The translations under genes and the position numbers were made by a program. A stretch of DNA of 64,000 bases from Escherichia coli (GTDB lineage: Bacteria > Pseudomonadota > Gammaproteobacteria > Enterobacterales > Enterobacteriaceae), in NCBI RefSeq assembly GCF_024700885.2, contig NZ_CP117016.1. One strand, written 5' to 3'. The notes below the pieces were generated by a model, which was not told where the DNA came from, did not search any database, and saw only the letters and a program-made list of their open reading frames with translations. Below are positions 6,640 to 28,011 of the stretch, piece by piece. Within the stretch, counting starts at the first letter, position 1. Each line of letters opens with the position of its first letter.

Positions 6640-7461
6640 TTATCCTCTCAGTTCCTGTTGTGCCAGTGGCTGAAGCGTACCCTGATAGCGGGCCAGGTCG
6701 GGACGGTATGCTGCCCCCGGTGCATAAGACCAGCCGACGTCGGTGATCACCTTCGTGGTGCCGGTATTAAAGGTGGCCACGTTCCGCATTTCGCCGGTTT
6801 TCTCTGAGACCAGTTTCAGTTCCTGGCCCATGGCAGAGCCGGAGCTGATAACCTTCAGGCCACGGGCACGTACATCCGCCGCACTCAGGGCAATCACACT
6901 ACAGCGGCAGCGCCAGCCGTTCGGCGGGTAAAATGCCTGCCAGAACGGGTCATCCCAGCGCAGCACCAGACCATGCAGCGCCAGATGGCTCCTGCGGGTA
7001 TGGCTGTCGTTGATGCCGGTATACATCCAGTACGGCCTGTCGTCGACGTTTTCCATCTGTTCCGCCCAACGACCGGCGCTGTAGAGTACGGACATATTGG
7101 TGCGAAAGATGGTATCGAGCCGCCACGGACTGCCCTGCTGAATGGTGACTGGCTCACCCGTTACCGGGTCAGTCGTGTCACGTGGTCCCCACCATCCCTT
7201 ACGCTTCAGCACCGGCTCCAGCTCCTGCCGGAACCAGCGATCGGTTTTTCCTTCATCGACAGCCTGCTGCAGTGCCCCGCGAATATCTTCCAGGATATCC
7301 AGGCGGGTCACTTTAGCAACGGTAAAGGCGCGGGCATGGGCCTCCTGCCACATTTCTTCCCAGTCCCAGGTAATCTGATACCCTTTGGACTTCAGGTAGT
7401 TGATTGCCCGCTTCGGGGGAAGCGTCATGCAGTACGCCAGTTCAGCCGTTGTCACGCTCAT
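6640..7461 (-). CDS. phage head morphogenesis protein (Mu F-like minor head protein)
   Basis: 273 aa; contains NGWRCRC-type motif typical of Mu F / SPP1 gp7 family; follows portal gene. Confidence 0.7.
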   Translation of the reverse strand: MSVTTAELAYCMTLPPKRAINYLKSKGYQITWDWEEMWQEAHARAFTVAKVTRLDILEDIRGALQQAVDEGKTDRWFRQELEPVLKRKGWWGPRDTTDPVTGEPVTIQQGSPWRLDTIFRTNMSVLYSAGRWAEQMENVDDRPYWMYTGINDSHTRRSHLALHGLVLRWDDPFWQAFYPPNGWRCRCSVIALSAADVRARGLKVISSGSAMGQELKLVSEKTGEMRNVATFNTGTTKVITDVGWSYAPGAAYRPDLARYQGTLQPLAQQELRG

Positions 7462-8938
7462 GCAGACGCCCCCGGATATTTGTCACAAAGAGAATGCGGG
7501 CCAGCCGCTCCTGCAGATCGTCCGTGTTCATCTGAGGGTAGAGCTCCGCCAGTTCGCCCAGCAGCTCAGACGGGTTAACCCCATTTTCGACCCGCCTGAA
7601 CAGAGGTGCCAGGACGGGTTCCAGCGTGCCATTTAACGCGCCTCCGTTCATCAGAATGTCCAGCGCGTCGTCAAGCTGCTGCTGAGCCTGAATATCAGCA
7701 TCAATCGCCTCGGCAAATGACAGCGGCAGCATGTTATTCTGTCGTTCCGACGGTGGTGTCTCGTCAATATCGCCGTCCTGCAGTTGGTACTCACGCTTGA
7801 AGTACTGCGGGGTCAGACGCAGACCCGCCCGGGTGAGTTTTTCGTCGCGGGTGGCACGGGTGTCATCAATGGCCTCCTGTTCCCACATGGCCCAGACCGG
7901 ACACGGCACATCGCCGAAGTTCAGGGTGACCACCGTTCTGATGACCTGATTCACTGCCGCCTGAATGATGTCCGCATCCGCATCGCGGATATCAGCCGTT
8001 ACCTCCAGCCCGGCCTGTGCAGAGGCCTTGTTACTGTTCGCTTCCGTGGTCTGATTCTGACCGAGTAATGCAATGGAGATCTCACTGCGTGACAGTGTGA
8101 TCAGCTCGCGGAATACCTCGCTGCTGTCCGCCTTACCATCCGCGGCTTTGAGTTCGATGCTGCTGTCATCGGGGATGGCGGCCACCGCGTCCTCCACCAT
8201 CTGCTCCATGGAGTCCAGCAGTTTTTCAATCTCTGCATCATTTGCACCCCTCGGGTGCTTACCGATCACCCACGGGGAGCCAAACTTTTCGGCAAAGCGG
8301 AGCCAGAATTTCATCCCGCCTTTCTTGAAGGCGACCGGCCAGAAGCACATGGACAGGTCCGGGAAACCGTAAGGATTGTCATACGAGGCATCCTGTGCCG
8401 GCACCACGAATTTTGACGGTGACAGCAGCTCACCCTCCACACCCGCATCACGCGCCCGGAAGCGCAGGCAGTTGTCCGTATCAAACTGAAACCACTCAGG
8501 CGGTTTGCCGACAATATCCGTCACCGCCCACGACCTGACCGAACGGCCCCACATGATTTCACAGGGCTGATACCCGTAGAGCACGGCATCGCTCATTTCA
8601 CCGATGATGCGGGACAGATCCAGATCGTCGAGCATGTCGCGGATGAAACGGAAGACCCGGGCAGAGGCGTGACCACGCTCCAGTCCACGCTCCAGCGATT
8701 TAAGCGCTGCTTTACGTCTGCGGATACAGCCCCCGACCAGCGGGTCGGTGCGCAGTTCGCGGTAGATACGGATATCCCGTCCCTGAGCCTTGAGAATGGG
8801 ATCAGGATTGGGCAGATACATGCCCAGTCCGTAAAAGTCGATCGCGCGGCTGCGGGAGGCAATCTGCGCGGTCAGTGATTTCTGAGGCTCAGAAAAAGCA
8901 ACAAATTCATCGGGTGAAACCCAGATACCCCTCGCCAT
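7442..8938 (-). CDS. phage portal protein (Mu gp29-like)
   Basis: 498 aa between terminase large subunit and F-like gene. Confidence 0.75.
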   Translation of the reverse strand: MARGIWVSPDEFVAFSEPQKSLTAQIASRSRAIDFYGLGMYLPNPDPILKAQGRDIRIYRELRTDPLVGGCIRRRKAALKSLERGLERGHASARVFRFIRDMLDDLDLSRIIGEMSDAVLYGYQPCEIMWGRSVRSWAVTDIVGKPPEWFQFDTDNCLRFRARDAGVEGELLSPSKFVVPAQDASYDNPYGFPDLSMCFWPVAFKKGGMKFWLRFAEKFGSPWVIGKHPRGANDAEIEKLLDSMEQMVEDAVAAIPDDSSIELKAADGKADSSEVFRELITLSRSEISIALLGQNQTTEANSNKASAQAGLEVTADIRDADADIIQAAVNQVIRTVVTLNFGDVPCPVWAMWEQEAIDDTRATRDEKLTRAGLRLTPQYFKREYQLQDGDIDETPPSERQNNMLPLSFAEAIDADIQAQQQLDDALDILMNGGALNGTLEPVLAPLFRRVENGVNPSELLGELAELYPQMNTDDLQERLARILFVTNIRGRLHERDNG

Positions 8939-24651: not shown

Positions 24652-25012
24652 GGGGCCGGAACTCCTGGTGGAACTGGCACAGCATACCTCTGAGACCGTT
24701 CGCGAGATTATTGATATTGAGCCCGAAGTTGCCGACCAGATTGGTCAGGCCGTCGCGAACCGAATGATGCAGGTCTGGGGCGGGCAAAACGTTTATTTCC
24801 CGATGGGCATGGTATGGAAGGTCAGTCAGCGCGACCGGGAAATCTTCAGGGAGTTTAACGGACGCAACCACCACGAACTGGCCCGCAAATTTGGTGTTTC
24901 GCTTCAGTGGGTCTACAGCGTGGTTAAGCGGGTAAGAAAAGAAGAACTGGATCGGATGCAGGGCAAGCTATTTGCTGATGAACCCGATGCAGATACGGAG
25001 AAAAAAGAGTAA
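24623..25012 (+). CDS. mor: Mor/C-family transcriptional activator
   Basis: 129 aa with C-terminal HTH HHELARKFGVSLQWVYSVVKRV. Confidence 0.7.
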   Translation: MSDLNQFRSKGPELLVELAQHTSETVREIIDIEPEVADQIGQAVANRMMQVWGGQNVYFPMGMVWKVSQRDREIFREFNGRNHHELARKFGVSLQWVYSVVKRVRKEELDRMQGKLFADEPDADTEKKE

Positions 25013-25041
25013 TATCTGCAATCAGGCTGGCGCGAGTTCTG

Positions 25042-25098
<57 letters not shown>

Positions 25099-25099
25099 A

Positions 25100-25174
<75 letters not shown>

Positions 25175-25363
25175 GTGAACTTTCTCGTGGAAAAATACGC
25201 GCTGGTGCGTACCGACCAGCCGGGATTCAGCGCCTGTACCCGCTCTCAGTTAATAAACAGCATCGATATCCTCCGGGCTCGCAGGGCGACCGGCCTGATG
25301 ACCCGCGACAATTACAGAACGGTAAATAACATTACCCTGGGTAAGTATCCGGAGGCGAAATGA
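25175..25363 (+). pseudogene. cbtA: 3' fragment of cbtA/ykfI/ypjF-family toxin gene (truncated by prophage insertion)
   Basis: Translation NFLVEKYALVRTDQPGFSA...ILRARRATGLMTRDNYRTVNNITLGK matches my recollection of the CbtA C-terminal half; GTG start with no RBS and in-frame stop 2 codons upstream. Confidence 0.5.
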
Positions 25364-25554
25364 TGACACTGGAAGCCGACAGCGTTAACGTACAGGCGCT
25401 GGATATGGGGCACATTGTCGTTGACATTGATGGTGTTAATATCACTGAACTGATTAATAAGGCCGCTGAAAACGGTTATTCACTCCGCGTGGTGGATGAC
25501 CGTGACTCTACCGAAACACCGGCAACTTATGCCAGCCCTCACCAGTTGCTGTAA
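25360..25554 (+). CDS. yeeW: YeeW-like small protein (CP4-44-type island)
   Basis: 64 aa, GGAGG RBS, ATGA-coupled to cbtA remnant as in CP4-44-type islands. Confidence 0.5.
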   Translation: MMTLEADSVNVQALDMGHIVVDIDGVNITELINKAAENGYSLRVVDDRDSTETPATYASPHQLL

Positions 25555-25838
25555 GACAATGCAGTGATACAGGGTATAGTGCCATTAACCACAGAAACAG
25601 CACTGTTGTCCTGTATTAAGCAGGCAAGAGAAGATGTCCTTACCCTGCGCCATCTGCAGCTTCTGAACCAGAACCGGTGAATCTCACTCAACAGGCTTCA
25701 TTTCTCCTGACGCCAGCCTGAATACAGCTGGCGTTTTCATTTATAAACAGAAAGGAAAACCGATAATAATGGAATGGACGCCCCGACCATGAAGCAACGG
25801 TAGGATATTACTGATAAACCTTCCAGTGGAGGTGCGTT

Positions 25839-25919
25839 ATGGCCGTTTTAACGATTAGCATTGACCTGACAAAAAATGAATTCCAAATCCACGGTCTGGG
25901 TAGGAACAGAAAAATCTAA
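25839..25919 (+). pseudogene. 26-codon stub with strong RBS, possible transposase 5' fragment (yoeD-like)
   Basis: GGAGG 6 nt upstream of ATG; MAVLTISIDLTKNEFQIHG then stop. Confidence 0.25.
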
Positions 25920-25994
25920 GCTCAGAAAACGGATTAAAGTAAGCGTCAACGGAGCACCGTATTGACGCTTATTTATTGGTGAGAACTACGTTCC

Positions 25995-26351
25995 ATGGCA
26001 GGAGTTCGTCAACACGGTTGGAGGGCCATTCCGGCAGTATGCTCAGAATATGGCGCAGATACGCTTCCGGATCGATACCGTTCAGACGGCAGGTGCCTGC
26101 TTTTCTGGCAACAAGCAGGAATCTCAGCGCTGAAGCAGGAATTAGAGGTAAAAACGCCCTACCGGGCCATGAATCACCCGGTCATTGGAGTAGTAACCAA
26201 AGCAGATTTAGCCAGCATGGAACAAATATCTTTGGTGAAAAGTTGGTTACGGGAAGCTGGAGCGCACAACGTGTTAGTAACCAGTGCAGTTAATAACAAT
26301 GGAGTTACAGAACTTTTTGCCTTGCTGCATACAGAAGAAGGTTGTTGTTAA
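25995..26351 (+). pseudogene. yoeF: EutP/PduV-family GTPase fragment (yoeF-like)
   Basis: C-terminal half carries the VVTKADL G4-like motif; N-terminal P-loop absent. Confidence 0.45.
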
Positions 26352-26410
26352 TTTCGATTGGTTCTCGGATGAGAATGATGACGGTGATACACAGATAAGA
26401 ATCAATGAGC

Positions 26411-26437
26411 AATGAGGGTTGCCGGGCAACCCTCATT
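26411..26437 (-). terminator. hairpin downstream of yeeX (putative terminator)
   Basis: Long inverted repeat AATGAGGGTTG..CAACCCTCATT just past the yeeX stop. Confidence 0.35.
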
Positions 26438-26451
26438 GAATAAAACGGGAA

Positions 26452-26781
26452 TTACTTCGCTTCGCCGTTTTTCATTTCGCCCATAGCTTTCAGCTTTTTG
26501 GAGATATCGCGGCGTTCTTTGGAGAGCTCGGCATTTTTGATGATGTAATCGTCAACGCGATCTTCATAGTCACCTTTCATGCTGGCGATGATGCCCTGGA
26601 TTGCTTCAACGCTCATCCCCGGCTTGATGTAATCGCTCAGGTTGTCCAGCAGCAGGACGCGCTTCTGGTTGTCACGGATCTTTTTCTCAACGTCCTGAAT
26701 TTCACGTTGCAGTTTGTTCTTACGACGGAACAGACGAACAAATTCCAGTACGTCCTGGAATGAAGGCTTGGTAGTTTCCAT
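26452..26781 (-). CDS. yeeX: DUF496 protein YeeX
   Basis: [29 protein letters not shown]..., recognised E. coli protein; start trimmed to ATG 26781. Confidence 0.85.
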
Positions 26782-26952
26782 TTTTATACCCCTGATAATG
26801 TGAGAGTCGGATTCGTTTAAGCAACCGCTATTCGTTAGGGCCAACATTACTCATAGCTGCCGCAGATGACAATGCTTTTATCCCTTTTCACTATCATACC
26901 CTTTATCCTTGCTGAATCGAAGCAGCAGCAAGATGATTCTGAAGTTCAGGAA

Positions 26953-28011
26953 TTATTTGCGCAAGGCCCGGCAAATCAGATTCGATAGCAACTCAAGCTG
27001 ATGCGCCGTTTCCATGTTCAGCCACACATAACCATAGATTGGTGTTTCCACAACCTTCAGGTCATGGTGGTTATTGAGCAACTGACGCAGCTCTTCCACA
27101 GCATCGTTCAATTTTTCCGTATTGGCAAAAACCGGCTGCGGATTACCTTCGTACAGCGCATGAACAAGGCTCAGCAGTATTTGCTGCATCATGTGCTGGG
27201 TATCACGAAGTTTTTGCGCGTTCAATAACACGAAATGGCTGGGGCGCGTGGCCCAGTATGCATTGATTTGCAACTCCAGCATACAAACCAGATTGCGGTT
27301 AATGGTCTGGATACCTTCATATATCGATTTTGGAATACGGGTTTCTTTGCTGGCGGGCGCAATCAGTCCACGCATTTTCACGGCATCGGTCAGGAGTTTT
27401 TGTAGATGGCTTTCCAGACGTGGGCGTTCGAGTAAGTTCGGTGAGAATGCAGATTGATAGACCCGATTATACTCGGTCAGACTTTTCGCCAGTTGAATGC
27501 GCCAGTGGATGAACGCCCGTTGTGGCCAGATACCGGTAAACAACATTGCCAGTAAAGAGCCGAGGATCACATCGCCGCTTCGCCATAACGCCGTATCAAT
27601 TTCACCTGTCGGGGAACCCACAACAATTGCCAGCGTCACCCCAATCAATAAACCTTGATACGGTTTCTTGCCCAGCGCCAGCCAACCGCAAAGGAACATG
27701 GCCGCCGCGCACCAGACTAACATCAGCGGTAACGAGATTAACTCCAGTTGCAGAGCGATAAGACCTAAAATCGAACCCAACACCGTACCGCCAATACGCT
27801 CAAAGGCGCGAGGGACAACGTTACCCCAGAACGAGATTGGCCCCATAATCACCACCATGGTGACCAGCGGCCAGGTGCTTTCCGGGATAGTAAACAGGCG
27901 GATAATGAGAAAAGTGAGCAGGAATGCCAGCGCGACCCGAGTACCATGCACAATGCGGTAATGGCGGTATACCCGGATTTCAAACGGGCTTAATGACTTA
28001 TCGGCACGCAC
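26953..28011 (-). CDS. yeeA: inner membrane protein YeeA
   Basis: 352 aa, multi-TM N-terminal half, recognised E. coli order next to sbmC. Confidence 0.8.
   Translation of the reverse strand: MRADKSLSPFEIRVYRHYRIVHGTRVALAFLLTFLIIRLFTIPESTWPLVTMVVIMGPISFWGNVVPRAFERIGGTVLGSILGLIALQLELISLPLMLVWCAAAMFLCGWLALGKKPYQGLLIGVTLAIVVGSPTGEIDTALWRSGDVILGSLLAMLFTGIWPQRAFIHWRIQLAKSLTEYNRVYQSAFSPNLLERPRLESHLQKLLTDAVKMRGLIAPASKETRIPKSIYEGIQTINRNLVCMLELQINAYWATRPSHFVLLNAQKLRDTQHMMQQILLSLVHALYEGNPQPVFANTEKLNDAVEELRQLLNNHHDLKVVETPIYGYVWLNMETAHQLELLSNLICRALRK

Follow-up and report, generated by a model that had tools for sequence, protein, structure and literature searches.

In Escherichia coli K-12 MG1655, the cryptic prophage CP4-44 occupies the position between cobU and tmaR (yeeX), and the annotated genes at its right end run cbtA-yeeW-yoeD-yoeF and on into tmaR, with the curated feature "cryptic prophage CP4-44" ending at K-12 2078748. 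Strains of the CX12/AB56 type carry the same island end in another form, with a DUF4942 gene fused to pduV and a longer IS110-family pseudo-element, and in pdu-positive strains the propanediol-utilisation (pdu) operon, a microcompartment operon, ends in pduV (EutP/PduV small GTPase family, PF10662) next to tmaR. We examined positions 25360-26351 of a 64,000-nucleotide stretch of E. coli DNA (contig NZ_CP117016.1; hereafter the window), which is 100% identical to the strain MLI114 record NZ_CP117013.1. By its alignment this segment is the right end of CP4-44 itself rather than something merely CP4-44-like, and it closes with a short pduV stub that appears to belong to the chromosome and not to the island.

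The initial annotation of this DNA had described the segment as a degraded CP4-44-like island between a prophage and yeeX, and had proposed an alignment with K-12 yeeW-yoeD-yoeF-yeeX. That alignment placed it at 99.9% identity to the CP4-44 end of K-12 (99.88% over 1726 bp for window 25175-26900, rearrangement-free), with the annotated features from cbtA to tmaR mapping one-to-one and with the same breakpoints, a similarity well above anything expected by chance. The curated boundary of CP4-44 corresponds to window 26168, and 25360-26351 is exactly the span from the start of yeeW to the stop of yoeF. The gene order in MLI114 is cobT-cobS-cobU, then the island, then cbeA-cbtA′, the phage and ′cbtA-yeeW through to tmaR, so the position between cobU and tmaR is that of CP4-44 in this strain as well. 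K-12 differs in having fewer island genes than MLI114 to the left of the phage and in lacking the ~37-kb prophage that splits cbtA in MLI114.

Everything at 25360-26351 is already annotated in K-12 and nothing in it is new. We are highly confident that the segment is best explained as having no role as a unit, and as recording a series of genome accidents where cobU and tmaR meet, common to K-12. The "layered decay of an older integrative element" that had been suggested holds in part: there is a stack of decay events, but the EutP/PduV stub does not come from the element. Three further pieces had been passed over, namely an IS66 fragment on the minus strand (25969-26097), a DUF957 remnant and a DUF4942 fragment. 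The feature coordinates are collected in Table 1. For comparison we used the locus of strain CX12 (L004), a pdu-positive contig (L005), an island-free locus (L006), the MLI114 island (L007, of which 12943-37500 is NZ_CP117013.1 2069942-2094500) and another island copy (L008). All genome counts are among 5,426 complete E. coli genomes.

The pduV stub and the yoeF reading frame

The last piece of the segment had been called the C-terminal half of an EutP/PduV-family GTPase without its P-loop. The stub is real and the P-loop is absent, but only the last 60 codons (~40%) are left. It scores above the Pfam gathering score and keeps the TKAD (G4) motif, while the P-loop, the G1-G3 motifs and ~85 N-terminal profile positions are missing. 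Against NCBIfam TIGR02528 it reaches 42-43 bits where the cut-off is 138, so it is not a full-length EutP/PduV GTPase. The P-loop, GPSQCGKT, was found only in the longer pduV of pdu-positive strains (P0034), and a protein search with the stub returned only E. coli fragments, including two longer alleles, P0034 and P0040.

Homology to true pduV, and to the island-free and pdu-positive strains, begins exactly at 26169. In L005 the operon runs pduG-H-J-K-L-M-N-O-P-Q-S-T-U-V and is followed by tmaR after an equal 100-bp spacer; this locus is 97.5% identical to window 26169-26900, and the end of its pduV, orthologous to the 60 codons of the window, sits after pduS-pduT-pduU, in an operon that is absent from the window. 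The island-free locus L006 has the order cobT-cobS-cobU-(cbiP remnant)-pduV′(91 codons)-tmaR-yeeA-sbmC-dacD-sbcB. A table of Shiga toxin-producing E. coli strains also has yoeF adjoining cobU (PMC5359238). A single copy of the 183-bp stub is present in 5,409 of the 5,426 genomes.

One could propose instead that all of the fragments between the prophage and yeeX, the EutP/PduV stub included, are debris of one older integrative element, CP4-44. The pieces do all adjoin one another, the yoeF open reading frame (ORF) straddles the island boundary, and the y-ome paper lists yoeF under "CP4-44 prophage region" (PMC11551758). However, the stub is contiguous with pduU in pdu-positive strains, it stands beside cobU in a strain without the island, it is present in nearly every genome when the island pieces are found in far fewer, and the curated CP4-44 ends one base before it. 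Since these four observations all place the stub in the chromosome, we regard its origin in the element as very improbable.

The stub and L006 differ by 3 synonymous and 9 non-synonymous changes (6.6% divergence), which is ~20 times the divergence of the adjacent tmaR, where only synonymous changes occur and all six loci compared encode one and the same protein. Because the differences in the stub mostly change amino acids while the TmaR protein next to it is unchanged, the stub reads as a drifting pseudogene, and on this comparison it is a neutrally drifting relic of a chromosomal pdu operon, not island cargo.

Some side observations concern the pdu-positive locus. Its pduV (L005:10001-10330) encodes only 109 amino acids (aa); an internal stretch is deleted from the switch region (…TPG) to FTSSMNRPVIG, so pduV may already be defective there. 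No pduW or pduX lies between pduV and tmaR in L005; in Salmonella LT2, both are presumably present between pduV and yeeX. Lawrence and Roth (Genetics 1996) reportedly proposed that the lineage of E. coli had lost the cob/pdu region.

The 71 bp before the stub are collinear with the DUF4942 gene of CX12. They encode LFWQQAGISALKQELEVKTPYRA, the continuation of the DUF4942 N-terminus, and they are the last island-derived sequence at the locus. The DUF4942 N-terminus in L004 is 75.5% identical to L008:3541-3740, and in CX12 it is fused in frame to pduV. The annotated yoeF (b4538) crosses from this piece into the stub, and thereby over the curated boundary of CP4-44. By composition, yoeF is a three-part chimera in which codons 1-34 are antisense to the IS66 fragment, codons 35-58 are from DUF4942 and codons 59-118 are from pduV.

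We also considered whether selection has kept yoeF (118 aa), or its 60-aa PduV tail, as a genuine small protein that is expressed and has a new function. The stub occurs in >99% of genomes, its last 60 codons are open in all six loci compared, and both K-12 and PGAP (the NCBI Prokaryotic Genome Annotation Pipeline) annotate a coding sequence here. Set against this are the excess of amino-acid-changing differences over synonymous ones between alleles, the divergence far above that of tmaR and the loss of G1-G3. Furthermore, what lies upstream varies by lineage (antisense IS66, DUF4942, a cbiP scar or true pduV), so there is no common start or N-terminus, and close linkage to tmaR together with a shared hairpin is enough to account for the retention. 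We therefore give an expressed YoeF only a slim chance. Much the same small weight goes to a broader form of the idea, in which the 3′ end of pduV, surviving in >99% of genomes after at least three different truncations or fusions on its 5′ side, was kept for a new role; it might supply the convergent tmaR with a 3′ element or a terminator region, or again be a small expressed protein (YoeF or the 60-aa tail). Our preferred reading remains that of a drifting relic.

Fragments of two insertion sequences

The initial annotation had noticed a 26-codon ORF with a strong ribosome-binding site that ends abruptly, and had taken it for a probable transposase stub. The ORF lies at 25839-25919 with GGAGG six bases 5′ of its ATG, and the comparison with CX12 identifies the family. 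Over window 25768-25938 the DNA matches the first part of a 1370-bp element in CX12 (L004:6044-7413) at 99.5% identity, and at this site in CX12 and AB56 PGAP places the start of a 1029-bp IS110-family transposase pseudogene on the ATG of the ORF. The stop that ends it comes from an old frameshift, which is present in the CX12 pseudogene too. When the CX12 pseudogene was stitched, its translation matched Transposase_20 (PF02371) at 48.8 bits, above the cut-off, and DEDD_Tnp_IS110 (PF01548) at 25.6 bits, where the cut-off is 29. In tblastn, residues 1-173 of the stitched translation align to intact plasmid IS110-family transposases (E 6e-53, 54-58% identity); the best annotated IS110 transposase on plasmids is 57.6% identical, and a closer, unannotated match of 94.3% over residues 20-173 is in the E. 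coli record CP061244.1.

It could be argued that the 26-codon ORF arose by chance or is an independent small gene, given that the 26-aa and 32-aa peptides alone have no Pfam or NCBIfam match and that neither PGAP nor K-12 annotates it. With its start shared with the annotated IS110 pseudogenes at near-identical DNA, a stitched translation that aligns with intact IS110-family transposases from residue 1, and a stop explained by a frameshift already in the longer pseudogene, we consider this extremely improbable. On these alignments the ORF is a remnant of an IS110-family transposase, its N-terminus, and no functional member of the family. Among the matches inspected there was no intact close copy of the element, and all of the E. 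coli genome copies inspected are pseudogenes.

The site into which the IS110-family element went is the start codon of the DUF4942 gene (window 25766-25769), with the dinucleotide AT on both sides in CX12/AB56. Homology between the window and L008 stops at 25767, and its last position in L008, 3542, is the annotated DUF4942 start. We tried L004:7144-7596 as the right end of the element and rejected it, as 7414-7604 is the resumed DUF4942 gene. In the element L004:6044-7413, the transposase gene is flanked by only 71 nt on its 5′ side and 270 nt on its 3′ side. Any guide ("bridge") RNA of the element would thus fall within the part that the window has lost. An Rfam search of window 24900-27000 for an IS110 bridge RNA or any small RNA gave no match, and the same search of the CX12 locus gave only a chance snoRNA match (E = 0.58).

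At 25938/25939 the collinearity with CX12 stops, and it resumes at 26098, which is L004:7526; between these points, 159 bp stand in place of L004:6215-7525 (1311 bp of CX12). They consist of a 30 bp terminal sequence beginning GTAAGCG, which we take to be a typical IS66 terminus, and the last 43 codons of a transposase (25969-26097), and complete IS66/ISEc23-like elements match them at their ends with 96-99% identity. The TnpC C-terminal element (PF13817) and the terminal sequence assign the piece to IS66, though it is far from complete, as an entire element would have tnpA, tnpB, a full tnpC and its two ends. At its other edge, the break at 26097/26098 joins IS66 tnpC to DUF4942. K-12 yoeD (b4642) maps to 25969-26097, and it is thus this minus-strand fragment that bears the name yoeD, not the 26-codon ORF, as the naming in the proposed alignment had implied.

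In contrast to the complete elements of these families, the window keeps only dead fragments, 171 bp of IS110 with the N-terminus of the transposase and 159 bp of IS66/ISEc23-like sequence with the C-terminus of the transposase and the terminal sequence on the minus strand. The CX12/AB56-type allele shares with the window the island end, the DUF4942′::′pduV fusion, the IS110 insertion and the frameshift, but the 1370-bp IS110 pseudo-element is still whole in it, the 61 retained DUF4942 codons are all there, and it has no IS66 scar. We infer that this allele represents the stage before the state of K-12 and the window. The full 1370-bp state is carried by 633 genomes and the IS110/IS66 junction by ~3,900.

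The remaining features, the prophage and the island

Table 1. Features at the right end of CP4-44 in the window, with coordinates, strand and the evidence for each
Feature	Position	Strand	Evidence or remarks
cbtA 3′ part, last 62 codons + stop	25175-25363	+	Pfam CbtA_toxin profile 63-112/112, 77 bits
yeeW (b2006), 64 aa, DUF5983 family	25360-25554	+	Pfam DUF5983_N (PF25638) 1-56/56, 101 bits
DUF957 gene remnant	25577-25680	+	aligned to the intact 65-aa DUF957 gene of L008
Terminator-like hairpin, then TTTTCATTT (T-run)	25709-25743	+	3′ of the DUF957 remnant; fold -16.1 kcal/mol
DUF4942 leader and first two bases (AT) of the start codon	25744-25767	+	homology to L008 up to L008:3542
Left end of an extinct IS110-family element (putative)	25768-25938	+	71 nt leader with GGAGG ribosome-binding site, then ~33 transposase codons
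Right end of an IS66-family element = K-12 pseudogene yoeD	25939-26097	-	159 bp; Pfam DDE_Tnp_IS66_C (PF13817) 58.3 bits
yoeF (b4538), 118-aa ORF	25995-26351	+	coordinates map to K-12 yoeF
DUF4942 gene fragment, about codons 38-61	26098-26168	+	collinear with L004:7526-7596
pduV relic, last 60 codons + stop (183 bp)	26169-26351	+	Pfam PduV-EutP (PF10662) profile 86-142/143, 49 bits (88-142/143, 49.5 bits, for the last 60 codons)
Hairpin with perfect 13-bp stem	26410-26438		100-bp gap between pduV′ and convergent tmaR
tmaR (yeeX, b2007)	26452-26781	-	first intact core gene rightwards; PGAP and K-12 annotation

The only gene within 25360-26351 that still looks complete is yeeW. What had been noted as a yeeW-like gene gives a match over the full DUF5983_N domain and encodes the same protein as K-12 YeeW, with one accession, WP_000988600.1, for MLI114 and K-12 (PGAP). 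The name of the model, DUF5983_N, led us to suspect that yeeW is truncated. This was rejected, as most of the best 120 homologues listed are 64-68 aa long with that domain only, and yeeW is probably intact.

The DUF957 remnant next to it starts with GTG in place of the ATG of the intact L008 copy and lacks 93 bp (31 codons) of that copy's interior; the deletion keeps the frame and lies between imperfect 8-bp repeats. PGAP labels it as DUF957, partial, in K-12, and a Pfam search of the remnant gave no match.

Two hairpins lie in the region. The terminator-like one behind the DUF957 remnant (z = -4.2, with 0 of 200 shuffles as good) is kept in L008. The one between pduV′ and tmaR has fold energies of -21.8 kcal/mol on one strand and -21.0 kcal/mol on the other (z = -5.1 and -4.4, respectively) and is kept in all loci compared; it has a clear T-run on neither strand, and it may be a shared terminator or an element like the repetitive extragenic palindromic (REP) sequences. 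A scan for consensus promoters and terminators gave counts not above those of shuffled sequence and listed neither hairpin. Further right, K-12 has a 16-codon small protein gene, yoeJ, annotated between tmaR and yeeA (K-12 2079427-2079477; window 26847-26900 region).

To the left of yeeW, the cbtA fragment noted beside the prophage was confirmed. PGAP labels 25175-25363 as cbtA with its N-terminus missing, and identity with K-12 (cbtA b2005) begins at 25175, the cut at 25174/25175 being the right end of a transposable prophage. The other half of cbtA is at NZ_CP117013.1 2069662-2069853, ~37 kb away in the source genome, and the sequence GTGAAC is present at both phage junctions (window 25169-25180; NZ_CP117013.1 ~2069655-2069665). 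The antitoxin gene cbeA is intact in MLI114 and the toxin gene cbtA is split. The prophage covers window 1-25174 plus ~12 kb before the window start (NZ_CP117013.1 ~2032545-2069661, ~37 kb), and its matches to the rve, AAA_22, GemA and Mor profiles identify it as a transposable (Mu-like) phage. Over 10 kb of its early region it shares 99.5% identity with Escherichia phage PhiKM. The + strand carries the early genes (adenine methylase, rve transposase, AAA partner, Gam, GemA and Mor), which point toward the right end, and the - strand carries the genes for structural and P2-like tail proteins. Mor is thereby the final gene ahead of the phage end; in phage Mu it is not.

The tips of the phage are TGAT at the start and ATCA at the end, that is, TG...CA ends. 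If the ends are taken in this way, the target duplication GTGAAC is 6 bp; the classical Mu target duplication is 5 bp. At positions 14-21 from the tip, both phage ends have GATAAATG, a candidate for a transposase-binding site.

The part of the MLI114 island left of the phage (NZ_CP117013.1 2069942-2094500) is much fuller than CP4-44 of K-12. Its extra genes include those for antirestriction, DUF932, DUF905, IrmA, a YeeP-like GTPase and YfjI and a frameshifted agn43, and toward cobU there are pseudogenised IS110, ISL3, IS3 and IS4 copies. No integrase gene is annotated in this part of the island.

Proposed order of events at the cobU-tmaR junction

The breakpoints described above can be seen directly, and the order of events is read from the states in different strains. 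The ancestral state would have been that of L005, with pduT-pduU-pduV convergent with tmaR. Deletion of the cbi/pdu block would then have left a cbiP fragment beside cobU and a ~91-codon 3′ stub of pduV, as in L006. A CP4-44-type island would have occupied this scar, and a deletion at its right edge would have fused DUF4942 codon ~61 to pduV codon ~91; this step is suggested by K-12, which is without L006:9814-10093 and where homology resumes at K-12 2078749, the window's 26169. An IS110-family element would next have entered the DUF4942 start codon, its transposase later gaining frameshifts and stop codons. An IS66-family element would have followed at about IS110 codon 33, and an "illegitimate" deletion of most of IS66, of the remaining ~1.2 kb of IS110 and of the first ~37 DUF4942 codons would have given the K-12 state, creating the 26-codon stub, yoeD and the chimeric ORF yoeF. 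The DUF957 gene may have been shortened by a slippage-type deletion of 93 bp. Finally, and in MLI114 only, a PhiKM-like transposable (Mu-like) phage of ~37 kb would have transposed into cbtA, duplicating GTGAAC and inactivating the toxin.

That the Mu-like phage was a later arrival had already been proposed, and this agrees with the split of an otherwise intact cbtA with the GTGAAC duplication. The phage also appears to be the most recent layer, because the phage/cbtA junction is spanned by the source strain only among the complete genomes.

Several points weigh against this history. The order from the deletion of the cbi/pdu block to the IS110 insertion is drawn from present-day states in a handful of strains and no phylogeny. 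The pdu operon could have been regained at this site, so that the pdu-positive state would not be ancestral, and the island may have come in with the deletion rather than ahead of it. The assignment of 26098-26168 to DUF4942 is based on a DNA identity of 75% and on the name given by PGAP, and a Pfam search of the DUF4942 N-terminal fragment gave no match. YoeF (118 aa) in K-12 and a 60-aa EutP/PduV protein in PGAP are annotated as coding sequences. With these points taken into account, we still think it very likely that the history as a whole is the best explanation of the segment.

For annotation, these results support the curated boundary of CP4-44. They speak against yoeF being listed among prophage genes or among uncharacterised proteins: of the three parts of this chimera, only the final 60 codons have an ancestry that is real, in pduV, and that ancestry is chromosomal. 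In MLI114, the phage insertion inactivates the CbtA toxin and leaves the antitoxin gene intact. The relevance beyond annotation hygiene is slight, but the junction offers a compact worked example in which the scar of a cbi/pdu deletion would have served as a landing pad, first for an island, then for two insertion sequences and, in a single strain, for a transposable phage.

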